DNA of 64,000 nucleotides from Candidatus Aminicenantes bacterium (GTDB lineage Bacteria; Acidobacteriota; Aminicenantia; Aminicenantales; JAFGAV01), in contig OY970122.1 in assembly GCA_963705895.1 (NCBI GenBank), positions 3,178,383 to 3,242,382 on the forward strand, read 5' to 3'. The translations under genes and the position numbers were made by a program. Position 1 is the first letter of the stretch. Every line of letters starts with the position of its first letter. The notes beneath the pieces are model-generated. The model did no database searches and was not told where the DNA came from. It worked only from the letters and a program-made list of their open reading frames with translations. Shown here piece by piece: positions 41,006-52,093 of the stretch.

Positions 41006-41088
41006 GAAATTGCCCTCTCCCTCTCCGATCTCATCTTAGCACCGGGCCGCGAAAATTCCTATTGCGGAGCGGGGTCCGAATCACTACA

Positions 41089-41922
41089 ATGAAGAAAAAG
41101 AAGACCATGCGACATTTCCTGTTCGACGCCTACAACGGCTACCGGTCGCGGCTGGACGACATCCCCTTCATCCACGAGTTCCTGGAGGAGGCGCCGCTCA
41201 AGTTGGGGCTGCGGCCGACCATGCCGCCCTTCGTCCTTCCCTATTACAACGGCATCGTCCCCGAGGACTGCGGCATCAGCTCCTTTGTTTTCCTCGAAGG
41301 CGGGCACTTCACCCTGCACACGTTCTCCTACCGGGGCGCTTTTTTCATCGACCTCCTCGACCCGAAGGGGGTCAACCGGAAGAAGCTCCATGACCTCATC
41401 GACGACGCCTTCCCCTCGGAGAAGAACCTCGAGAACTATATCGATAGGACCGAGGGCGAGCGGCTGAGCCGGCCGGCCATCGACACAGAGAAGGATTTCG
41501 GACCGCACCTCTTCCTCGATTTCGAGGACTTTGAGGGGCCTGGCACGATGGACGCGATCTTCGCCTACTTCGACGGCCTGCCGCGGAAGGTCGGGATGAC
41601 GCCCATCATCCGGCCCTACGTGATTCGAAACCGGGTGGGCGCGGAGGACGTCCTGTCGGGAATGACCATGATCGCCGAGAGCCATATCAGCCTCCACGTC
41701 TTCCTCGGCAGCCGGAAGGCTTACTTCGACCTGTTCAGCTGCAGCTTCTTCGACGCGGCCAAGGTCGTGCGCGAGCTCAAGCGGGGCCTCAAGGGCAAGG
41801 TTCTCCACGAGACGCTTATCTCCCGGGGGAGCAAGTACAAGAAATTCCGGGAAGCAGCCCCCCAAAAAGCCAAGTTCTCACGGGTGTGGCTGGGCCACGT
41901 CCTCCGCAAAGACAAGTCTTGA
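41089..41922 (+). CDS. Tandem two-domain pyruvoyl-dependent decarboxylase of the AdoMetDC/SpeD family
   Basis: Domain 1: HFLFD...GISSFVFLEGGHFTLHTF...IDLLD. Domain 2: HLFLD...SGMTMIAESHISLHVF...FDLFSC. Confidence 0.82.
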   Translation: MKKKKTMRHFLFDAYNGYRSRLDDIPFIHEFLEEAPLKLGLRPTMPPFVLPYYNGIVPEDCGISSFVFLEGGHFTLHTFSYRGAFFIDLLDPKGVNRKKLHDLIDDAFPSEKNLENYIDRTEGERLSRPAIDTEKDFGPHLFLDFEDFEGPGTMDAIFAYFDGLPRKVGMTPIIRPYVIRNRVGAEDVLSGMTMIAESHISLHVFLGSRKAYFDLFSCSFFDAAKVVRELKRGLKGKVLHETLISRGSKYKKFREAAPQKAKFSRVWLGHVLRKDKS

Positions 41923-42620
41923 TAACCCGATCTTCATTTTCCCTCGCCTCCCCGTCCTTCTCGACTCTCATCCTGGGGCTCGACCTGGCCGGGGCTCCCC
42001 TGAGGCGGACGGGTGCCTGCCTGCTCCGGGGAAGGCGGGCCGCGACGTGCGTCCTCAACACGGACAAAGAGATCCTCGAATTTTGCCGGAAGGCGAGGCC
42101 GGCCCTGGTCGCCATGGACGCGCCTCTCCACCTTCCGCCGGGACGAAAGTCAATCAACGACCGGAATGGGAGGCACCTGCGCGGGTGCGATGAGGAGCTG
42201 CGGCGGAGGCACATCCCGTTCTTTCCGATCACCCTGGGTCCGATGCGGATGTTGACCGTGCGGGGGATGCGTCTCGAGAGAATGATCCAAGCGATGCACA
42301 TCCGCGTCGTCGAGATCTACCCCGGCGGCGCCCAGGATGTCTGGGGGATTCCGAGGGCCAAGAGGGATATCGCCGGACTCCTTGGGGGATTGAGGCGATT
42401 GGGATTGCTTGGATTGAGCTCGAAGGCGACGGCCGACGAGTTGGATGCGGCCTCAGGGGCGCTCGTCGGACAGCTTTTTTTGCGCGGCAAGGCCGAGGTG
42501 CTGGGGAATTTCAGGACAGGGGCGATCATCCTTCCCAGGGCGAAGAGGAAGAGCGGCGGAAAAGCAAGGAAGGGGAGTGCGCGCACCTCAACACGCAGAA
42601 GGACGAGTCATGAACGGTAG
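41919..42620 (+). CDS. DUF429-like predicted RNase H-fold nuclease
   Basis: LGLDLAG...TG, VAMDAPL, RGCDEEL, VEIYP, DELDA. Confidence 0.72.
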   Translation: MITRSSFSLASPSFSTLILGLDLAGAPLRRTGACLLRGRRAATCVLNTDKEILEFCRKARPALVAMDAPLHLPPGRKSINDRNGRHLRGCDEELRRRHIPFFPITLGPMRMLTVRGMRLERMIQAMHIRVVEIYPGGAQDVWGIPRAKRDIAGLLGGLRRLGLLGLSSKATADELDAASGALVGQLFLRGKAEVLGNFRTGAIILPRAKRKSGGKARKGSARTSTRRRTSHER

Positions 42621-43315: not shown

Positions 43316-43738
43316 TCAGACGGCTTTGAAGCTCTGAGCCACCCAGTCGCGGATCTCGTTCCTGATCCGGCGGACGCAGGCCAGGATCTCGGCTTCCGAT
43401 CCCACGCATGATGAGGGGTCGTCGAAGCTTTCATGAAGATACTTTCGCGCCCCGGGGAAGAACGGGCATGTCTCCTGAGCCTGGTCGCAGAGCGTCACCA
43501 CGAGGTCGATTTGCTCTCCCAGGAACACGTCCACGCTCTTCGTCCGGTTATTTGATAAGTCATGGCCGATTTCCTTCATGACGGTAACAACGTGCGGATT
43601 GATCTTTCCCGGCTCTGTTCCCGCGCTTGAAGCCTTGTAGCGATCGCCGTAGAGCGAATTCAAAAAAGCCTCGGCCATCTGCGACCGGGCCGAGTTGTGG
43701 GTGCAAACGAACAGCACTTTTTTCTTTTCCGGGGTCAT
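43316..43738 (-). CDS. arsC: Thioredoxin-coupled arsenate reductase (LMW-PTP fold)
   Basis: CTHNSARSQMAE, TLCDQAQETCPFFPG, FDDP. Confidence 0.88.
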   Translation of the reverse strand: MTPEKKKVLFVCTHNSARSQMAEAFLNSLYGDRYKASSAGTEPGKINPHVVTVMKEIGHDLSNNRTKSVDVFLGEQIDLVVTLCDQAQETCPFFPGARKYLHESFDDPSSCVGSEAEILACVRRIRNEIRDWVAQSFKAV

Positions 43739-43809
43739 ATCATTATTTTAACAGATTGCGATTTTTGTTCAATTTTCGTGCAGGGGAAGCGCCTCCGGCC
43801 GCGATCTCC

Positions 43810-44841
43810 TTAAAAAACAAGGTTGAACAGAAACCCGACGATCATGATCCCGACGGCGACGATCCCGACGAAGATCAGGATGAGGGGGAGCCTTAACACC
43901 TTCTTTAATATGATGGTTTCGGGGAGCGAAAGTCCGATGATGGACATCATGAAGGCTAGGGCTGTTCCCAGGGAAGCCCCTTTTTCCAGGAGAGACTGGA
44001 TAATGGGGATGATGCCTGCCGCGTTTGAATAGAGGGGCACTCCGATAAGCACCGCCAGCGGAACGGACCACCAGGCCGACTTGCCCATGAACGAGGCCAT
44101 GAAGTTCTCGGGCACGTAGCCATGGACTGCGGCGCCGACGCCGATCCCGGCGATGATGTAGGGCCAGACCCGTCCCACGATGCTCCTGACGGCCTCCAGC
44201 CCGGCAGCCACCCGGACCGCCCAGGACTGCCCGCTTTCCTCTATGGTTCCGCCCTGAGCCTTGGTTTCATAAACCCAGGGTTCGACGAATCTTTCCAGCT
44301 TGAGGCGGCCGATCGTCCATCCCGCCGCGATGGCGATGATGAGTCCCGTCGAAACATAGAGAAAGGCCGTTTTCCAACCGAACAGACCGAAAAGGAGGAC
44401 CAGGGCCACTTCGTTGATCATGGGCGCCGAGATCAGGAAGGAGAAGGTGACGCCCAGCGGGATTCCGCTCTCGACGAACCCCAGGAAGAGGGGAATAGCC
44501 GAGCAGGAGCAAAAGGGGGTCACGATTCCCAGGCCGGCGGCCAGGACGTTCCCGGTGAAAAGCGATTTTCCCTCGAGCGCCCGCCGCGTTCGTTCCGGCG
44601 AAAAAAATGTGCGGATGATCCCGACCACGAACACAATGAGCACCAGCAGCATGAGAACCTTGGGCACTTCATAAAGGAAGAACCGAAGGGCTTCGGTCAG
44701 CGGCGCGCCGGCCGGGAGTTTGATCAACCGCAGGACGATCCCGTCCGCCGCTCTTTTTAGGAGGGCAAAGACGGCGGCCCACAGGGGCAGAAGTAGAACA
44801 AGCCATATTCTCTTAGACAATTGATTTCTCCGCGTAGCCAT
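43810..44841 (-). CDS. arsP: ArsP/DUF318 permease (organoarsenical efflux family)
   Basis: TPFCSCSAIP, APMINEV, GVPLYSNAAG, LSLPE; divergent from arsR. Confidence 0.85.
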   Translation of the reverse strand: MATRRNQLSKRIWLVLLLPLWAAVFALLKRAADGIVLRLIKLPAGAPLTEALRFFLYEVPKVLMLLVLIVFVVGIIRTFFSPERTRRALEGKSLFTGNVLAAGLGIVTPFCSCSAIPLFLGFVESGIPLGVTFSFLISAPMINEVALVLLFGLFGWKTAFLYVSTGLIIAIAAGWTIGRLKLERFVEPWVYETKAQGGTIEESGQSWAVRVAAGLEAVRSIVGRVWPYIIAGIGVGAAVHGYVPENFMASFMGKSAWWSVPLAVLIGVPLYSNAAGIIPIIQSLLEKGASLGTALAFMMSIIGLSLPETIILKKVLRLPLILIFVGIVAVGIMIVGFLFNLVF

Positions 44842-44850
44842 AGAATGTCC

Positions 44851-44894
44851 TTGACACGGTCATAATTATATATGAAAATATGTTCATATTACAA
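44851..44894. promoter_or_regulatory. Overlapping divergent promoters with an ArsR/SmtB-type operator palindrome
   Basis: ATATGAA-N6-TTCATAT at 44870-44889; plus-strand TTGACA at 44851; minus-strand TTGTAA-18-TATAAT toward arsP. Confidence 0.75.
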
Positions 44895-44896
44895 CA

Positions 44897-45274
44897 ATGA
44901 AAAACGCCCTGAGAATATTTAACGCCTTGTCGGATTCGACCCGATTGAGAATCATCCTCCTTCTTCTGGAGCGGGATCTTTGCGTTTGCGAACTGTTGTT
45001 CGTCCTGAAGATGTCCCAATCCCGTATATCGCATCAGCTCCGGATTCTCCGCGACGCCGGCCTCGTCGAAGACAAGCGCGACGGCCAGTGGATGGTCTAC
45101 GGCATTCCCGCTCAAACTAAGAAGAGCCTTAGACTCGTCCTGGGGGCTTTCCGTCTGAATGACCCGTCGGCGGCGGATGAAGTCGAGGCCGACCGGGACA
45201 ATCTGCGGGTATGCCTAAAACGTGGCATTCGTCCCTGCCAAAATAAGGCGAGCCCCTCGGCCAAGGAGATATAG
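44897..45274 (+). CDS. arsR: ArsR/SmtB metalloregulator
   Basis: FNALSDSTRLRI, DLCVCEL As(III)-binding motif, SQSRISHQLRILRDAGLV; two extra C-terminal Cys. Confidence 0.92.
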   Translation: MKNALRIFNALSDSTRLRIILLLLERDLCVCELLFVLKMSQSRISHQLRILRDAGLVEDKRDGQWMVYGIPAQTKKSLRLVLGAFRLNDPSAADEVEADRDNLRVCLKRGIRPCQNKASPSAKEI

Positions 45275-45275
45275 A

Positions 45276-45521
45276 ATGGAAATCAAGATCCTCGGGCCCG
45301 GATGTCCCCGCTGCCGGGACCTGGAAAAGCGGACGATCAACGTACTGGCCGAACTCGGCGTCGCAGCCGACGTCCAAAAAGTTTCGGACATAAAAAGAAT
45401 CATGGAATTCGGAATCTTGGCCACGCCCGGCCTGGTTATCAACGGTAAGGTCAAATGCTCCGGCCGAATCCCTTCCGGAGTGGAAATTAAACGGTGGGTT
45501 CAGGAGGAAAAATCAAGTTGA
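45276..45521 (+). CDS. Small redox-active disulfide protein (MTH895/TM0996-type thioredoxin)
   Basis: MEIKILGPGCPRC...TPGLVING...GRIP; AAGGAG RBS. Confidence 0.88.
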   Translation: MEIKILGPGCPRCRDLEKRTINVLAELGVAADVQKVSDIKRIMEFGILATPGLVINGKVKCSGRIPSGVEIKRWVQEEKSS

Positions 45522-45722
45522 GCGATATCCGCCAAGGCCGATGACATTCTCGAGGTCAAGCTGCTCTCTCAATTCCGGTTCAAAGCCGACGACTTTTAAG
45601 AGAAAAGGGAAACATCATCAATAAGGCCATGCCGGAGCGAAAATAAGGAAGCCCTAGCTTTTAAGAGATTCAACTGTGAAAGAAGAGTCAAAAGGAACTC
45701 GACTCAGAAGAAGGGAAGAACG

Positions 45723-46031
45723 ATGGAAGCCCACCTTTTAGACAACCTAATTGCATTTTCCCCGGAATCCCACACGAAACGCATCTTTTTCGATTCCGGG
45801 CCGGTCAAAGCACAGGTCATGGGTTTTGAGCCCGGGCAGCAGATCCCGCCCTGCCGTATGGAGCATGACGTCATTTTTGTCGTTTTAGAAGGCCAAGGGG
45901 AAATCATCATTGACGAAGAAAAGGAAACCATTGCCAAGTCTTCCTGGGTCTTTGTCCCGAAAGAAAAAGAGTCCCGCTCCCTGAAAGCTGAGACACGAAT
46001 GGCCGTCTTGGCGATCCAGCTCAGAGGCTAA
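45723..46031 (+). CDS. Cupin domain protein
   Basis: FEPGQQIPPC, FVVLEGQG, VFVP. The usual metal-binding His residues appear replaced. Confidence 0.75.
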   Translation: MEAHLLDNLIAFSPESHTKRIFFDSGPVKAQVMGFEPGQQIPPCRMEHDVIFVVLEGQGEIIIDEEKETIAKSSWVFVPKEKESRSLKAETRMAVLAIQLRG

Positions 46032-46032
46032 A

Positions 46033-46515
46033 GTGATTTTCAGCTTGGTCATCTGGGCGCTGGGTCTGGCCCTGCTCCTTCTCTCCTTCTCCAAGGACAG
46101 AGAGAAATCGCTGGCCGCCCTGAAAGTCGCCTGGAAATCCTTCCAGTCTATGGCCCTCCCCGTCCTGGCCACCCTCTGGGCGATCGGATTCCTCCTGACC
46201 TTTCTTTCGCCCCAAACCATAGCGAAGATGATGGGGCATGAGGCGGGCTGGCGGGGGATGATCCTTTCGGCTCTGGTCGGCTCCGTCGTCCTCATCCAGG
46301 CTTTCATCGCCTTTCCCCTGGCGGGGTCTTTGCTTCGGCAAGGGGCAAGTGTCGGCGCCATCGCGGCTTTTGTCACGACGCTGGTCATGGTCGGCGTTAT
46401 GACCGCGCCCCTGGAAATCAAATACTATGGGAAGAAGTTCGCCCTCTGGCGAAACACCCTCAGTTTCTTCTTCGCCTTGATCATCGCCCTTCTCATGGGA
46501 GCCGTTCTCGGATGA
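46033..46515 (+). CDS. Half-size DUF318-like permease subunit A
   Basis: Hydrophobic; AFIAFPLAGSLLRQGAS, TTLVMVG, PLEIKYYG...RN. Confidence 0.75.
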   Translation: MIFSLVIWALGLALLLLSFSKDREKSLAALKVAWKSFQSMALPVLATLWAIGFLLTFLSPQTIAKMMGHEAGWRGMILSALVGSVVLIQAFIAFPLAGSLLRQGASVGAIAAFVTTLVMVGVMTAPLEIKYYGKKFALWRNTLSFFFALIIALLMGAVLG

Positions 46516-47024
46516 AAAAAAGCGCCATCTTCAAAGTGCTTCTCCTTCTTGTCTTAGGCAACATCCTCGTTTTCCTTTTGAGCCGGGACAAAGGCTTTTC
46601 CGTCGTTTCCACAACCAAAGACTATCTCCTCGAAATGCTCACCGTGCTGCCGCCGATTCTCATTCTCGTGGGGCTTCTCGAGGTCTGGGTGCCCAAAAAA
46701 TTCATCGAAGCGGCCATGGGCAGCAAGTCAGGGATCAAGGGCATTCTCTTCTCCTTTCTCGTGGGGACAGCGGCCATGGGCCCCCTCTATGTCGCCTTTC
46801 CCATCGGCCTCTCGCTCCTAAAGAAAAAAGCCAGCCTGTTCCATGTCGCGATTTTTCTGGGCGCCTGGGCATCAATTAAGATTCCGATGATTCTTTTTGA
46901 AATTCAGTTCCTCGGAAGCCGCTTTGCCTTCCTGAGATTGGCCTTGACCATTCCCAGCATCATTGCCATCGGCTGGATTCTCGATTTGATTTTGAAGAGG
47001 AGTCAAACATATGAGGCTGCCTAG
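46512..47024 (+). CDS. Half-size DUF318-like permease subunit B
   Basis: Hydrophobic; GLLEVWVP, GPLYVAFPI, KIPMILFE; ATGA-coupled to subunit A. Confidence 0.75.
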   Translation: MKKSAIFKVLLLLVLGNILVFLLSRDKGFSVVSTTKDYLLEMLTVLPPILILVGLLEVWVPKKFIEAAMGSKSGIKGILFSFLVGTAAMGPLYVAFPIGLSLLKKKASLFHVAIFLGAWASIKIPMILFEIQFLGSRFAFLRLALTIPSIIAIGWILDLILKRSQTYEAA

Positions 47025-47460
47025 GGTCCGTCTGATCCTCATTCTGTTTCTTTTAGTTTTTATTTACTTTGCTTGCGGTCAGGATTCTGGCCATCCGTCG
47101 AGCGCTAACCGAGCCGTGAAATCCGGCAGCTCTTCGCCAGGAGAAGTCCTTGTCACGAACGAGGTCAATCTTGACTTTTCCAAATACAAAGTCACGTTTA
47201 TTGAGCTGGGCGCCGATCGATGCATCCCCTGCCGGAAGATGCAGCCGATCATGAAGGAGATCGCGGAGGAATACGCCGGCAGGGTTCAGGTCGTTTTCTA
47301 CGACGTCTGGAAAAACGCGACCCCGGCCGAATATTACAGGATCCAGCTTATTCCAACCCAGGTATTTATCGACCAGAAGGGGAAAGAAATATTCCGGCAC
47401 GTCGGACTCTTCCCCAAGGAAGAGATTTTAGGAATGCTCAAGGAAAAGGGAATCCTTTAG
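47011..47460 (+). CDS. Exported thioredoxin-family protein
   Basis: Signal/lipobox-like FAC; ELGADRCIPC, IPTQVF...GKE. Confidence 0.85.
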   Translation: MRLPRVRLILILFLLVFIYFACGQDSGHPSSANRAVKSGSSSPGEVLVTNEVNLDFSKYKVTFIELGADRCIPCRKMQPIMKEIAEEYAGRVQVVFYDVWKNATPAEYYRIQLIPTQVFIDQKGKEIFRHVGLFPKEEILGMLKEKGIL

Positions 47461-47472
47461 GCCCATAAAAAG

Positions 47473-48171
47473 ATGGAACACTTATTTGGAGACATTTCTC
47501 AGCTCCTCCAGCAAAGCCCCTGGCTGGCCATAATCGCGGTTTTCGTCGGAGGAGTTACGACCGCCTCCAACCCCTGCGTCCTAGCCATGATCCCGCTGCT
47601 GATGAGTGTCGTCGCCGGAAACAGGGAGACCACGACCCTGAGGCGGTCGCTCGTCTTTTCCCTGTTTTTCGTCCTAGGATTATCTGTCACATTCACGGTC
47701 CTGGGCCTTATATCGGCCCTGATGGGCCGGATGTTCGGCAACATCGGGAGTTTCTGGAAGTATGCCGTCGCGGCGGTCTGCCTCGTCATGGGACTCCAGC
47801 TTCTCGGGGTGTTTAAGCTCGAGCTCCGCCTCCCTCAGATGTTCAATGTCAGAAAAGAAGGAAGGCTGGGGGCCTTTCTCCTCGGCCTCCTGTTCGGGGT
47901 TGTCTCGACCCCCTGCGCCGTTCCCATTCTGGCCGTCCTCCTGGCCTTTGTTGCCCAAAAAGGAAACGTTCTCTATGGCGGGCTTCTGCTTCTTGTCTAC
48001 GCCCTGGGCCACTCCGCGTTGGTTCTTGTCGCCGGGACGTCCATGGGGGCCGCGAAACGGCTGATCGAGTCGAGGGGACTCCGCCGGGCAAACTTCATTC
48101 TGCAGAAGGCGGCGGGCGTGATCGTCATCCTCGTTGGCGCCTATTTCGTATTCGGCTGGCCTAAGTTATAG
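47473..48171 (+). CDS. ccdA: CcdA/DsbD-type transmembrane disulfide transfer protein
   Basis: NPCVLAMIP and TPCAVPIL Pro-Cys motifs; about six TM helices. Confidence 0.85.
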   Translation: MEHLFGDISQLLQQSPWLAIIAVFVGGVTTASNPCVLAMIPLLMSVVAGNRETTTLRRSLVFSLFFVLGLSVTFTVLGLISALMGRMFGNIGSFWKYAVAAVCLVMGLQLLGVFKLELRLPQMFNVRKEGRLGAFLLGLLFGVVSTPCAVPILAVLLAFVAQKGNVLYGGLLLLVYALGHSALVLVAGTSMGAAKRLIESRGLRRANFILQKAAGVIVILVGAYFVFGWPKL

Positions 48172-48219
48172 AGGAAGGGAAAAAACTCCCCAAACCGTTC
48201 AAACAAGGAGGTTGAGGAA

Positions 48220-48864
48220 ATGGCAAAAGACCTAAGCAAACAGCTGTGGCATGGTCTTCCACGGACTGAAATTCCCTGGCATCCGACCATAAACGTCGAT
48301 AAGTGCATCGGCTGTGAACTCTGCTACGTGACATGCGGCCGGGAGGTTTTTGAATTCAACGACGAGAAGCGGAAAGCCAATGTCGCCCGGCCTTTCAATT
48401 GTATGGTCGGCTGCTCGACGTGTGCCATGGTCTGCCCTACCGAAGCGATAAGTTTTCCGGGCAGGGAGTTGATATGGAAAACCGAGCGGGAACACAAGAT
48501 TTTTCAGGAGGTCCGACGGGAAGCGAAAACAAAAAGAGAAAAAGACGAGATCGGAAAGGCACGGGCCGATGCCGGACAAAAACTGGCTGCGGCCACAACG
48601 CAGATGCGACTTCAAATCGCGGGGGAGTTCGGAGAAAAACAGTTTCTCGTCCAATTATGGAAATTCCTTGAAGGCCGCCCGTTCGACATCGTCAATTTGA
48701 AACTCGAAGTCCCCACAGTCATGGGAGCTAAAGAGAAAGCCCCATCTTTCATGCAATTTGACGTCGTTTCGACCACCGATGAGGACATCCTGGGATTCTT
48801 GAAGGAATTGCGGGAACTCATCCTGAAGAATGGCCTCGTCATTGCTGCCGAACACAAGCTGTGA
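48220..48864 (+). CDS. 2[4Fe-4S] ferredoxin fused to a C-terminal domain of unknown function
   Basis: CIGCELCYVTC and CMVGCSTCAMVCP; WHGLPRTEIPW N-terminus; about 130 extra C-terminal residues. Confidence 0.82.
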   Translation: MAKDLSKQLWHGLPRTEIPWHPTINVDKCIGCELCYVTCGREVFEFNDEKRKANVARPFNCMVGCSTCAMVCPTEAISFPGRELIWKTEREHKIFQEVRREAKTKREKDEIGKARADAGQKLAAATTQMRLQIAGEFGEKQFLVQLWKFLEGRPFDIVNLKLEVPTVMGAKEKAPSFMQFDVVSTTDEDILGFLKELRELILKNGLVIAAEHKL

Positions 48865-48925
48865 ACAAGCGACGACCGATCGAAACCCCTAGGTTGGACC
48901 TGAGGAGCGCTGCCGCCCAAGGAGG

Positions 48926-49033
48926 GAATATTATATGTACGACTCGACCATGATCGGGCCGGTCAAGGCGGCCCTGTATTTCCAGCGCAGGCGCTATTCC
49001 GCCGAGATTCGGGGGGAAGCGAACAACGGATGA
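48926..49033 (+). pseudogene. Internally deleted acr3 remnant
   Basis: Reads EYYMYDSTMIGPVKAALYFQRRRY, matching a join of the Acr3 mid segment ([11 protein letters not shown]) and C-terminus ([15 protein letters not shown]) of the intact gene at 51026. Confidence 0.68.
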
Positions 49034-49086
49034 GCGAAGGGCGCCGAATCTATAGCGAGAAGGGCGAAATCAACGTGGAACCCTGC

Positions 49087-49231
49087 GCGGGCGATCGCTT
49101 CGAGCCTTGCAAGAAAGCCTGCCGGGCCAAGGTTGGAAAGGACGGCGGCTTGCCGGGGCACGGACGAGGAGATCCTTGCCTGCTTCCGGCGCAGCCGCGA
49201 CGCGATCCGGGATCGGATCGAAGCAGAGCTG
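49087..49231 (+). pseudogene. Decayed arsC remnant
   Basis: An alternative frame reads AACRGTDEEILACFRRSRDAIRDRIEAEL, matching the C-terminus of the arsC at 43316 (SSCVGSEAEILACVRRIRNEIRD); upstream AGDRFE fragment. Confidence 0.7.
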
Positions 49232-49250
49232 ATGAAAAAGGAGCAAAGGC

Positions 49251-49700
49251 ATGAACGGAAAGAATCTCGAACTGCGTGTCGATAAGTTCATCTTCCGTTT
49301 TCCCGAAGGCCTCTATTACAGCGATGCGGGAATCTGGGTGAAGATCGAGGAACGACGAGTTCGGATCGGCCTTTCCGACTTCACCCAGCAGAGGAATGGG
49401 GACGTGGCTTTTGCCGAAGTTAAAGAGGCCGGGACAACGGTCCTGGCAGGAGACGAGGTGGCCGTGGTCGAGACGATCAAGGTCAACTTGAGCATACCGT
49501 CGCCCGTCAGTGGGACGGTCGTCGAAGTCAACGGCGACCTTTTGGCCTCTCCCGAGCTTGTTAACCAGGATCCCTACGGGAAAGGTTGGCTGGCCGTCAT
49601 CGAGGTTGAGGATGTCGCCGCGGCGAAAGCCTCCCTGAAGACCGCGACGCAGTACTTAGCCCTGGCCAAGGTCCAGGCGGAAGCGGAGGTAGCGCGGTGA
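49251..49700 (+). CDS. Glycine-cleavage H-like lipoyl carrier protein
   Basis: IGLSDFTQ, VETIKV (lipoyl Lys), SPVSGTVVEVN, PELVNQDPYGKGWL. No gcvT or gcvP nearby. Confidence 0.88.
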   Translation: MNGKNLELRVDKFIFRFPEGLYYSDAGIWVKIEERRVRIGLSDFTQQRNGDVAFAEVKEAGTTVLAGDEVAVVETIKVNLSIPSPVSGTVVEVNGDLLASPELVNQDPYGKGWLAVIEVEDVAAAKASLKTATQYLALAKVQAEAEVAR

Positions 49701-50098
49701 GACGCAAAGTGGTCGTGGTCCCCTGCAGCGGGATAGGGAAAGCCCTTGGTGCTGCGGCCCGGGAGGCGGCTTATGTCCTGACCGAGGACCTCCGGCCCGA
49801 ATGCACGAAGATTACCGCCCTGGGGCTTCTGGTTTTGGGCGACCCTGAAACACGCCGAGAAGTGGCAGGCAGCGCGGCCGTCGCGATTGACGGTTGTAAA
49901 CTCGAGTGCGCCGCCAAGGGGCTTGAGGCCTCCGGGGCCGGCCGAGTCCAAAAGATTGCCGTCTTCGATGTCATCCGGCGTCACCGCGGGCTCAAGCCGG
50001 AAGGTGTGATCGACCTCAACGAAGACGGACTGCGGCTGGCCCGGGCTGCGGCCGAGGAAGCACTGAAATTTGTCGACGAGGAGGCCGCCGATGCCTGA
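49697..50098 (+). CDS. DGC-domain putative zinc-binding protein 1
   Basis: VPCSG...AIDGCKLECA; GTGA-coupled to the H-like gene. Confidence 0.8.
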   Translation: MRRKVVVVPCSGIGKALGAAAREAAYVLTEDLRPECTKITALGLLVLGDPETRREVAGSAAVAIDGCKLECAAKGLEASGAGRVQKIAVFDVIRRHRGLKPEGVIDLNEDGLRLARAAAEEALKFVDEEAADA

Positions 50099-50549
50099 CC
50101 TGCCGAAAAAGAAAGTTGGTCTGATCGCCTGCTCCGGGGAAGAAATGGCCGAGGGCACTGTCACACGGCGGGCCGTCCGCAAAGTGATCGAAACACTAAG
50201 GCCCGATGACACCGTGACTCTCTGTCTGCCGCTGTTTCTAGCGGGCGGAGAGGGTGAACGGGCTTTTGCCCGGTATTATCCGACGATCGCGGTTGACGGA
50301 TGCGAAAAACGGTGCGCCGCCCTCGCCACCGAGAAGTACAGCGCGAGACCGGCCGCATCGATCATCGTGACTGATATCGCGAAGGAAAAGGGCTGCGGGG
50401 CGATCGGTACGGCGCGGAAACTGAATGAGGCCGGGCTGCGGCTGACCGATTCAGTCGCCGAGAAGATCGTGGCGGAAACGGACCAGCTCTTGAAGAGGAA
50501 ACCCAAGGGCACGACCCGCAAGGCGGCCGGGAGGGGCGCTGATGGCTAA
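50091..50549 (+). CDS. DGC-domain putative zinc-binding protein 2
   Basis: IACSG...TLCLP...AVDGCEKRCA; GAGGAGG RBS; overlaps the upstream stop. Confidence 0.8.
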   Translation: MPDLPKKKVGLIACSGEEMAEGTVTRRAVRKVIETLRPDDTVTLCLPLFLAGGEGERAFARYYPTIAVDGCEKRCAALATEKYSARPAASIIVTDIAKEKGCGAIGTARKLNEAGLRLTDSVAEKIVAETDQLLKRKPKGTTRKAAGRGADG

Positions 50550-50991
50550 AACCGAACTCTACGAAACCTCCGTGAGTTGGACGGGTGGGCACCGGGGAAG
50601 CCTGAAGCTCGGCAACGGGCCCGAGATGGACTTCTCCGCGCCGCCGGCTTCACACGGTGAACCGGGCGTCCTGACGCCGGAGGATGCTTTCGTCGGCGCC
50701 GTCAACACCTGCATCATGTTGATGTTCATCTGGGCGGCCCAACGGTTCCGCCTGGACCTGGGGTCTTATGATTGCCGGGCGGAAGGCACGAAACTCATCG
50801 AGCTCGACCGGACGGAAATATTCACCCGGGTTGTTTTAAAACCCCGAATCACCGTCCGGGCCGGCCGTGAAGCGCCCGCGGCCATTAACCAACGGGCGCG
50901 TCGCGCGCTGGACTCCGCGCGGAAATACAGCCTCGTCGCAAATTCCATCAAGAGCGAACTCGTTATCGAACCGGAGATCATCGTCCAATGA
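50542..50991 (+). CDS. OsmC/Ohr-family protein lacking the C-terminal conserved Cys
   Basis: FSAPP...[13 protein letters not shown]; [12 protein letters not shown] has Ser where the family usually has Cys. Confidence 0.8.
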
Positions 50992-51025
50992 TGAACGGGT
51001 CGCGCGGGGGAGAAAGGAGAAGCAC

Positions 51026-52093
51026 ATGACGCCTGGAAACACGAGACTTAAGTTCCTCGATCGCTACCTGACCCTGTGGATATTTCTGGCCATGGCCGTC
51101 GGTGTCGGGCTGGGTTACCTCGTTCCGGCTGTCGTCGGCTTTATCAACAAGTTCCAGTCGGGGACGACGAACATCCCCATCGCCATCGGCCTCATCCTGA
51201 TGATGTACCCACCCCTGGCCAAGGTGAAATATGAGGAGCTCGGGGACGTCTTCAAGAACGTCAAGGTCCTGGCCTTGTCCCTCGTCCAGAACTGGGTCAT
51301 CGGACCGCTCCTGATGTTCGCCCTGGCCGTCCTTTTTCTCCGCGACAAGCCCGAATACATGTACGGCCTGATCATGATCGGCTTGGCCCGCTGCATCGCC
51401 ATGGTCATTGTCTGGAACGACCTGGCCCAGGGGGACAGGGAGTACGCGGCCGGCCTCGTCGCCTTCAATTCGATCTTCCAGGTCCTGTTCTTCTCGGTCT
51501 ACGCCTATATCTTCATCACCGTCTTCCCGACCTGGCTCGGCCTCAAGGGGACCGCCGTCAACGTCACCATCCGCCAGATCGCCGGGAGCGTCTTCATCTA
51601 CCTCGGCATTCCGTTCCTGGCCGGGATGCTTACCCGGTTCGCGCTTCTCCGGCTCAAGGGCCGGACGTGGTACGAAACGAAGTTCATCCCGCGGATCAGC
51701 CCCATCACGCTCATCGCCCTGCTCTTTACGATCGTCGTCATGTTTTCGCTCAAAGGCGAGTACATCGTCAAGATCCCGCTCGACGTCCTGCGCATCGCCA
51801 TCCCACTCCTGATCTACTTTGTCGTCATGTTCCTGGTCTCGTTCTTCCTCAGCCGCAAGGCGGGGGCGGACTATCCCAAGGCGGCCACGCTCTCCTTCAC
51901 GGCGGCCAGCAACAACTTCGAGCTCGCGATCGCGGTGGCCGTGGCTGTCTTCGGGATCAACTCGGGCGAGGCGTTCGCCGCGGTCATCGGGCCGCTCGTC
52001 GAGGTCCCGGTCATGATCGGCTTGGTCAACGTGGCCTTATTTTTCAAGCGCAGGTATTTTAGGACGCCCGAGGAGACGGCGGTCGGTCAGTGA
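51026..52093 (+). CDS. acr3: ACR3-family arsenite efflux transporter
   Basis: [54 protein letters not shown]. Confidence 0.96.

Follow-up and report, generated by a model that had tools for sequence, protein, structure and literature searches.

The window, the whole 64-kb stretch of a Candidatus Aminicenantes bacterium genome that was analysed (C1:3178383-3242382), contains a gene (41089..41922, + strand) whose product consists of two consecutive domains of the class 1b S-adenosylmethionine (AdoMet) decarboxylase fold, the fold of bacterial SpeD. By its sequence, the N-terminal half is catalytically dead, whereas the C-terminal half has all of the self-processing and catalytic residues. This tandem protein belongs to a widespread bacterial family in which the order of the two halves is the reverse of that in the eukaryotic AdoMet decarboxylase (AdoMetDC), and which is uncharacterised as far as our literature search shows. 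We propose that the protein is a single-chain pseudo-heterodimer of the class 1b fold in which one of the two interface active sites would be live. This architecture, with its single composite site, is well supported by sequence and by a predicted model. The substrate is likely to be something other than AdoMet, and genome context suggests L-arginine, with agmatine as the product; taken whole, architecture and reaction together, we give the proposal about an even chance of being correct.

SpeD-fold pyruvoyl enzymes are a textbook example of how an old enzyme can give rise to new activities. For the two-halved eukaryotic AdoMetDC, the debate over its origin still draws on a small number of bacterial fusions, all of which have the live half first; the family described here shows that the opposite arrangement, too, became fixed in bacteria, at an early date and in several phyla.

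Two SpeD-like halves and a predicted composite active site

The tandem protein was compared with the Pfam AdoMet_dc profile (PF02675), using its gathering score of 25 bits as the cut-off. Two stretches of the whole protein matched, at 79.3 bits. Each half was also recognised alone, the N half (residues 1-135) at 39.1 bits (E 1.1e-9, profile positions 1-106/107) and the C half (139 amino acids from nucleotide 41503) at 44.3 bits (E 2.5e-11), which bears out the two consecutive SpeD-like domains described in an initial annotation of this DNA. By BLASTP, the two halves match each other with E 5e-6, and the canonical SpeD encoded elsewhere in the same genome is matched by the C half with E 1e-6 (32% identity over 60 residues) and by the N half with E 1e-4 (22% identity over 114 residues). 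The C half also matches Thermotoga maritima SpeD (1tlu_A) in a phmmer search (E 1.1e-5), and no solved structure nearer by sequence than single-domain SpeD was found.

The halves differ in their motifs, and all of the motifs quoted in the initial annotation are present at the positions checked. The N half (residues 7-125; 41107..41463, + strand) would be a scaffolding half; it contains L69-E70-G71-G72-H73 and D88-L-L-D-P92. In an alignment to the genome's own SpeD, Gly71-Gly72 (41299..41304, +) replaces the Glu-Ser self-cleavage site and Pro92 (41362..41364, +) replaces the catalytic Cys. The same alignment pairs Ser64 (41278..41280, +), at the T. maritima Ser55 position, with the Ser of 'VSGVV', and places His77 (41317..41319, +) at the position of T. 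maritima His68. The C half (residues 136-250; 41494..41838, +), the putative pyruvoyl half, contains I195-A-E197-S198-H199 and D214-L-F-S-C218. Its Ser198, His203 and Cys218 (41740..41742, +) align with T. maritima Ser63, the pyruvoyl Ser, His68 and Cys83, and Glu197-Ser198 (41677..41682, +), the predicted autocleavage site, with T. maritima Glu62-Ser63. The set of self-processing Ser, His and Cys is thus complete in the C half, whereas the N half keeps only the His (His77).

A structure was predicted with AlphaFold2 on a 17-sequence alignment. The model shows two similar strand-helix units and has a mean predicted local distance difference test (pLDDT) score of 82 and a predicted template modelling (pTM) score of 0.83. 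The inter-domain linker (residues 126-135; 41464..41493, +), which is variable in the 17-sequence alignment, is poorly modelled, with mean pLDDT of 58 over residues 121-130 and 65 over residues 131-140. So is the C-terminal tail (residues 251-277; 41839..41919, +), with pLDDT of 41-46 over the last three blocks and a single helix at residues 261-276; Trp267 in this tail is invariant in the 17-sequence alignment.

Foldseek gave a modest match between the model and human AdoMetDC (TM 0.45). When VIA-align was run on the top chains from Foldseek, the full-length match was clear: the human proenzyme chains 1jl0_B and 1msv_B aligned with Z 15.6, root-mean-square deviation (rmsd) 3.4-3.5 and 212 aligned residues, at 8% identity. 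The alignments span model residues 1/2-249/250, and in the pairing with 1jl0_B, model residues 2-249 correspond to chain residues 5-289. A trypanosomatid chain, 5tvf_E, aligned with Z 13.1. Taken separately, the N half (model residues 3-125) aligned with T. maritima SpeD 1vr7_B (Z 10.6, rmsd 2.4, 113 aligned) and the C half (model residues 134-255) with Aquifex aeolicus SpeD 2iii (Z 9.8, rmsd 2.8, 117 aligned). Processed human alpha chains, whose first residue is 69, align from model residue 73; because model residue 73 pairs with human residue 69, Gly72 would coincide with Ser68, the pyruvoyl Ser of the human enzyme. In the model, a single chain of two SpeD-like halves forms a four-layer sandwich, and its end-to-end alignment with human AdoMetDC supports the intramolecular pseudo-dimer put forward in the initial annotation.

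The first half of the human AdoMetDC chain contributes the pyruvoyl group and Cys82, and the second half contributes Ser229 and His243. If class 1b dimers work alike, as their homology would suggest, Ser55 and His68 at each active site would belong to the opposite subunit. We infer from the model that the halves of the tandem protein pack like the subunits of the bacterial SpeD dimer or the two sheets of eukaryotic AdoMetDC. Ser198 would self-cleave from Glu197 to give the pyruvoyl cofactor, Cys218 would act as the proton donor, and the dead N half would provide Ser64 and His77 across the interface to the live site. The mirror site, made up of Gly72 and Pro92 of the N half with Ser190 and His203 of the C half, would be defunct. 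A single cleavage would give two chains: a long beta chain of ~197 amino acids, which runs from the dead half through the linker into the beginning of the live half, and a shorter alpha chain of ~80 amino acids with the pyruvoyl group.

This arrangement can be set beside three known ones. Class 1b SpeD, as in T. maritima (1tlu, 1vr7) and in the canonical SpeD of this genome, shares the fold of each half and the processing and catalytic motif of the C half, but it is a homodimer with two equivalent sites, whereas the tandem protein would be a fused heterodimer with one. Eukaryotic class 2 AdoMetDC (human 1jl0, 1msv) likewise combines two SpeD-like halves in a single chain and has one pyruvoyl site. 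In the available excerpts of a study in eLife (2016, PMC5201418), however, its N-terminal sheet carries the pyruvoyl group and its C-terminal sheet is the scaffold, whereas in the tandem protein the order is reversed and the sole processing site is in the C half (Ser198). An origin independent of eukaryotic AdoMetDC is plausible, and the substrate probably differs as well. Finally, trypanosomatid AdoMetDC and its prozyme (5tvf; PMC5201418) also pair a dead paralogue with a live one. The prozyme is a separate full-length class 2 protein that acts as an allosteric activator of its partner, whereas the dead unit of the tandem protein is a fused half of class 1b size that probably completes the active site.

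Conservation and spread of the tandem family

Residue counts were made on an alignment of 46 two-domain representatives of 225-320 amino acids, from which P0178 and P0227, with broken C halves, were left out. All 44 remaining, intact representatives have a dead N half and a live C half, down to 27% identity, and none of the 46 has both the processing Ser and the Cys in its N half. The pyruvoyl half therefore comes second throughout, at the opposite end from the eukaryotic enzyme, as the initial annotation had noted for this one protein. Ser198, His199 and Cys218 of the C half are each present in 44/44, and Glu197 is present in 39/44, with Gln in the remaining 5. At the processing-Ser position of the N half, Gly is found in 37/44 and Ser in 2/44, and the Cys position has Cys in 0/44.

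The proposed trans-acting pair of the dead half is retained almost without exception, with Ser or Thr at position 64 in 43/44 and His at position 77 in 44/44. The equivalents in the live half are less strict (Ser or Thr at position 190 in 34/44; His203 in 38/44). Because the pair is better conserved in the dead half than in the live half, a single composite site fits these counts. Mean pairwise identity is 29.9% for the dead half versus 32.8% for the live half, so by sequence the dead half is about as constrained as its partner. Near-invariant residues in the dead half are Asp13, Pro51, Tyr52, Asp60, Gly62, His73, Thr75, His77, Phe79 and Asp88. Given the conserved Ser/His pair and the nearly equal constraint, the dead half is more likely to complete the active site as a necessary partner than to be an added regulatory unit. 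The initial annotation had raised a regulatory dead half; a purely regulatory role is the less likely one, since the Ser/His pair is the best-conserved part. The family thereby offers a natural test of which residues of the SpeD dimer act across the interface.

A word-indexed protein search returned 632 relatives at E <= 0.001; at least 120 listed among these are 234-298 amino acids long and 52-99% identical. HMMER, run over representatives at 50% identity, gave 649 matches at E <= 0.001, 139 at E <= 1e-10 and 36 at E <= 1e-30. Among species-representative genomes (one per species), 167 stretches encode a tandem relative. The titles of the best 80 of these 167 name Aminicenantes, Bacillota (Thermincola, Phosphitispora, Alkalibaculum), Rokubacteria/Methylomirabilota, Myxococcota, Deinococcus and others. 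Within its own phylum, the tandem protein was found only in the genome of the window, out of 151 genomes sampled (E <= 1e-20). The family is thus large, but no published description of a SpeD tandem with a dead N half and a live C half was found in a literature search that covered text and not figures (PMC10407285, PMC13625781, PMC11999265, PMC11107197 and PMC9992855 among the papers), and the ESM Atlas returned only generic 'S-adenosylmethionine decarboxylase' clusters. The prospect that this is an already characterised, ordinary family did not materialise in that search.

A tree of 169 domain sequences (123 columns, quick search; all of the sequences uncharacterised) groups the N halves together, with Shimodaira-Hasegawa-like approximate likelihood ratio test (SH-aLRT) support of 98. 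The C halves likewise cluster together, the exception being six short sequences that fall within or next to their group; five of these resemble fragments of C halves. The canonical SpeDs of tandem-bearing genomes form a third group (SH-aLRT 99). Because the halves form separate groups, the fusion, with its first half already dead, would predate the spread of the family. The tree does not resolve whether the N and C halves arose by internal duplication or from two paralogues.

Stand-alone dead halves, which would represent a bacterial prozyme, were considered and set aside: the tails of the N-only proteins P0152 through P0249 are junk-like or truncated, and the proteins resemble fragments or products of frameshifts. 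Twelve proteins match only the C half, among them P0272, P0275 and P0273, and may likewise be fragments. Some of the one-half short proteins sit on long contigs (11.7, 69.0 and 10.4 kb). The tandem unit also occurs within longer predicted proteins of 355-1216 amino acids (P0169, P0186, P0197, P0209, P0247 and L055:3202-6852); in the long protein of L055, Pfam recognises the last part only, residues 1081-1174. These may be real fusions or read-through frames in GC-rich DNA. In a phage collection, the tandem form was not found, and the three records that matched did so over ~350-430 bases each, the size of a single domain. The Microcystis phage MaAM05 (MW495066.1, 248237-249060, - strand) encodes two adjacent single-domain SpeD homologues, annotated speH_2 and speH_1. 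One of this unfused pair is nearer to canonical SpeD and the other is nearer to the tandem family.

Genome context and the substrate

Three lines of evidence point away from AdoMet. On the NCBIfam model TIGR03330, the tandem protein scores 49.4 bits, below the equivalog cut-off of 75.65, and the canonical SpeD of the same genome (C1:1803103-1803423) scores 132 bits. Second, SpeD homologues are known that have become arginine decarboxylases (SpeDA) or ornithine decarboxylases (SpeDC), and a Pro in the central motif that is completely conserved in true AdoMetDCs is lost in SpeDA (Li, Liang, Phillips, Michael, J Biol Chem 2023, PMC10407285, cited here and below from its available excerpts). With the Pro position set from the His-Thr-Trp-Pro of the genome's own SpeD and not from Fig. 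8 of that paper, His-x-Phe is followed by Leu206 in the C half, with Ser80 at the equivalent place in the N half, and among the representatives Pro occupies these positions in 7/44 and 14/44, respectively. Third, a survey of gene content in 50 sampled tandem-bearing genomes found a separate full-length canonical SpeD (>= 95 bits) in 41/50, as in this genome, and SpeE in 49/50. Because the protein falls below the TIGR03330 cut-off, has lost the Pro and co-occurs with a canonical SpeD, a substrate other than AdoMet is likely, in line with the altered substrate suggested in the initial annotation, and the current label 'S-adenosylmethionine decarboxylase' is probably wrong.

The genome, assessed as one contig of 3.31 Mb and 92.4% complete, contains no match to decarboxylases of the alanine racemase (AR) fold (PF02784), the aspartate aminotransferase (AAT) fold (PF01276) or the PvlArgDC family (PF01862), and no match to AguA (PF04371) or deoxyhypusine synthase (DHS; PF01916). 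Diaminopimelate decarboxylase of the AR fold (LysA) likewise went undetected in the PF02784 search of this 92.4% complete genome. An agmatinase is present (TIGR01230, 208 bits versus a cut-off of 174), as are the canonical SpeD and two SpeE genes, each of which adjoins an amino-acid permease gene. The same pattern is found in G007, a genome titled as a single chromosome. If the tandem protein decarboxylates arginine, its agmatine would enter a route to spermidine through the agmatinase, SpeE and canonical SpeD, and the protein would fill the missing first polyamine step in genomes that, like this one, have these three enzymes and lack any known decarboxylase of arginine or ornithine. It would also add a further origin of arginine decarboxylase activity.

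Gene neighbourhoods in relatives point in a similar direction. In 9/10 sampled genomes titled Rokubacteria or Methylomirabilota, the gene immediately downstream of the tandem gene, on the same strand, encodes a deoxyhypusine-synthase homologue (Pfam DS, 219 bits). We presume this homologue to be SpeY; SpeY enzymes from diverse phyla couple two agmatines (PMC13625781, from its available excerpts), and agmatine would in these relatives also feed the SpeY route to homospermidine. In one Bacillota locus (L018), the tandem gene is followed by speE and then by an agmatinase gene (TIGR01230, 320.8 bits), with a canonical SpeD elsewhere in the genome. In Alkalibaculum (L070), a class 1a speD (TIGR03331, 438 bits) and speE precede the tandem gene, and the order and clusters of open reading frames (ORFs) are the same in L086. 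In a Myxococcales locus (L055), the tandem gene is followed by argininosuccinate synthase, and an ORF of the same cluster lies two ORFs downstream of the tandem gene in L065. Across the survey, 49/50 tandem-bearing genomes have a PF00491 or PF04371 match.

SpeDA is among the closest described relatives of the tandem protein. Both have the class 1b SpeD fold and the Ser/His/Cys set, both have lost the AdoMetDC-specific Pro, and both are second SpeD homologues beside a true SpeD (PMC10407285). SpeDA genes lie next to speY or speB in some genomes; tandem genes lie near a presumed speY or an agmatinase gene in some relatives of the present protein and not in the window. In the excerpts, however, SpeDA is described apart from fusions of two SpeDs, whereas the tandem protein has 277 residues and a dead first domain. 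None of the tandem-carrying taxa (searched as Rokubacteria, Aminicenantes, Thermincola, Methylomirabil-, Myxococc- and Deinococc-) is named in the main text of that paper.

Several observations weigh against an arginine-decarboxylating pseudo-heterodimer. No polyamine gene was found beside the tandem gene in the window. PF00491 and PF04371 also include enzymes that do not act on agmatine, and the adjacency to speE in L018 and L070 fits an AdoMetDC equally well. An AAT-fold PF01276 decarboxylase is present in 19/19 sampled Bacillota-type genomes and in G201, and in 4/10 Rokubacteria-type genomes PvlArgDC is encoded within a separate speB-speD-speE cluster. Because these enzymes occur in relatives, the argument from a missing enzyme holds for part of the family only. 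A PF02784 match, mostly one per genome, occurs in 44/50 and could hide an ornithine or arginine decarboxylase. We infer self-processing at Glu197-Ser198 from sequence, and the trans-acting roles of Ser64 and His77 would follow from human and T. maritima structures together with the predicted model. Weighing these points with the neighbourhoods above, we hold that the tandem protein could equally well turn out to be an arginine decarboxylase or not.

The PF02784 matches in tandem-bearing genomes are probably LysA, and PF02784 was dropped as a marker of an alternative arginine or ornithine decarboxylase, since matches in 44/50 genomes give no discrimination; TIGR01273 is above its cut-off in 1/50. 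The separate cluster of the Rokubacteria-type genomes is compact and comprises arginase-family, PvlArgDC, SpeD and SpeE genes (G035:C14:55475-58229, with equivalents in G031, G032 and G034). Such genomes may run two arginine decarboxylases for two polyamine routes. A test of anti-correlation in relatives was also abandoned, because the 12 same-class genomes lacking the tandem gene showed no consistent trend: SpeD is missing altogether from 5, another 3 carry two canonical-type SpeDs, and SpeA exceeds its cut-off in none of the 12. Three genomes of one genus (G076, G092 and G189) have no tandem gene and two full-length canonical-type SpeDs each (127-135 bits), and one copy in these genomes might be a single-domain neofunctionalised enzyme.

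Among the alternatives, the protein could be a second, specialised AdoMetDC that feeds an extra aminopropyltransferase, with the dead half as a built-in activator in the manner of a fused prozyme. The AdoMet_dc fold with its intact Glu-Ser, His and Cys set would suit this role, as would the position of the tandem gene beside speE in L018 and L070 (and, judged by ORF cluster, L086). This genome and most tandem-bearing genomes encode at least two SpeE-like proteins, and the nearest single-domain relatives by HMMER bear the 'HTFP' motif typical of true SpeDs. The score under the TIGR03330 cut-off nevertheless argues against it, as does the absence of conservation, in either half, of the Pro of true AdoMetDCs (PMC10407285). 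Such an enzyme would also be redundant with canonical SpeD in 41/50 genomes and with a class 1a SpeD of the same operon in L070, and an association with the presumed SpeY, adjacent in 9 genomes, requires no decarboxylated AdoMet (PMC13625781, as excerpted). We therefore regard this role as unlikely.

Similarly unlikely is an activity on another amino-acid-like substrate, or a non-catalytic or regulatory role unrelated to polyamines. Most loci have no polyamine neighbour: the closest relatives have DUF429, and the neighbours in Bacillota are peptidase S8, NlpC/P60, polysaccharide deacetylase, HD_5 or NrdR genes. The distribution of the gene is sparse and patchy, with 1/151 genomes sampled from the phylum encoding it, and the near-invariant Asp13, Pro51, Tyr52, Asp60, Gly62 and Asp88, which are the dead half's own, could build a new pocket. 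Where neighbours are informative, however, they are polyamine or arginine genes, in four arrangements; the full catalytic set in 44/44 representatives argues for catalysis; and no SpeD homologue acting on lysine was found, according to the excerpts of Li et al. 2023 (PMC10407285).

A bolder variant would give the dead half a role beyond that of a scaffold and have these same six residues form a substrate pocket or an allosteric site. Human AdoMetDC is switched by putrescine, and the tandem protein would on this account be an independent, mirror-order re-invention of the eukaryotic solution, either switched by a metabolite or acting on a substrate other than AdoMet, arginine or ornithine. We rate it somewhat below the two alternatives just described.

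Equally improbable, and likewise below those two, is a pyruvoyl ornithine decarboxylase (ODC) that makes putrescine directly and that arose separately from the SpeDC clade: SpeD homologues have turned into ODCs before (PMC10407285), this genome has no known ODC, and the L070 operon of class 1a speD, speE and tandem gene would make a complete route from ornithine to spermidine in a genome (G028) with no PF00491 match at E <= 1e-20, but G028 has an AguA-type match (405.7 bits) and hence an agmatine route, the association with the presumed SpeY and with agmatinase points to agmatine and not to putrescine, the agmatinase of the present genome would be left with no source of substrate, and the site of the tandem protein is Ala-Glu-Ser-His, as in SpeD and SpeDA, versus Glu-Thr-Ser-Leu in the ODC halves of published fusions (PMC10407285).

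Those fusions, termed SpeD1-SpeD2, come from Desulfotignum phosphitoxidans, Ca. Omnitrophica OLB16 and Victivallis vadensis (PMC10407285). They too have two SpeD-homologous domains per chain and a similar length (~270-320 amino acids, against 277 here), and in the V. vadensis fusion, as would hold for the tandem protein, one domain is degraded and only one cleavage occurs. The excerpts describe their N domain as a true AdoMetDC and their C domain as an ODC, live or degraded, whereas here it is the N domain that is dead. The two Ser positions are 150 residues apart in the fusions (S79 and S229) versus 126 in the tandem protein (72 and 198), and the C-half site reads Gln-Leu-Ile-Glu-Thr-Ser in the fusions (Fig. 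S5 of PMC10407285) versus Thr-Met-Ile-Ala-Glu-Ser. Of the four diagnostic residues in the central region of SpeDC (Gln, Thr, Phe and Tyr; PMC10407285), the Gln and Thr appear to be absent from the tandem protein, and Phe205 and Tyr212 may correspond to the other two, positions being approximate. The fusion genes lie immediately upstream of speE in genomes with no other polyamine genes, according to the same excerpts, whereas the genome of the tandem protein has a separate SpeD, SpeE and agmatinase, with no speE in the window.

The gene and its surroundings

The tandem gene, read from the ATG at 41089, encodes 277 amino acids plus a stop codon. The longest frame at the locus (41062..41922, +) starts at a TTG and would encode 286 amino acids, and a further ATG at 41107 corresponds to Met7; 14/17 aligned homologues begin at the equivalent of Met7. 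The true start may be 41089 or 41107, as judged from these sequences. On the opposite strand, the ORF 41059..41865 (-) is a shadow frame such as GC-rich DNA often contains. A promoter scan found no promoter-like site, and a terminator scan found terminator-like sites in a number within chance expectation.

The upstream neighbour in the window encodes a TonB-type outer-membrane protein. Downstream lie a DUF429 ORF, a HAD hydrolase gene and then an arsenic-type cluster. The DUF429 ORF (41886..42620, +; Pfam DUF429, 31.6 bits) overlaps the 3' end of the tandem gene, and the same order is found at the loci of the closest relatives (L011, L012, L015 and L033). From this recurring order, the two may be co-transcribed; no link between DUF429 and polyamines is known or evident. 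The statement in the initial annotation that the window contains no speE is accurate: the SpeE-like matches in this genome, at C1:620060, 891307, 720590 and 2474410, all lie outside C1:3178383-3242382.

The arsenic-type resistance cluster occupies window positions 43316-52090, just downstream of the tandem gene. It includes an LMWPc/ArsC-like phosphatase (43316-43738, -), an ArsP permease (43810-44841, -), ArsR (44897-45271, +) and a short second ArsP-like ORF (46512-47021). Its further members are a thioredoxin, a DsbD-type membrane protein, a 4Fe-4S protein and an SBF-family transporter (50867-52090), possibly of the ACR3 type.

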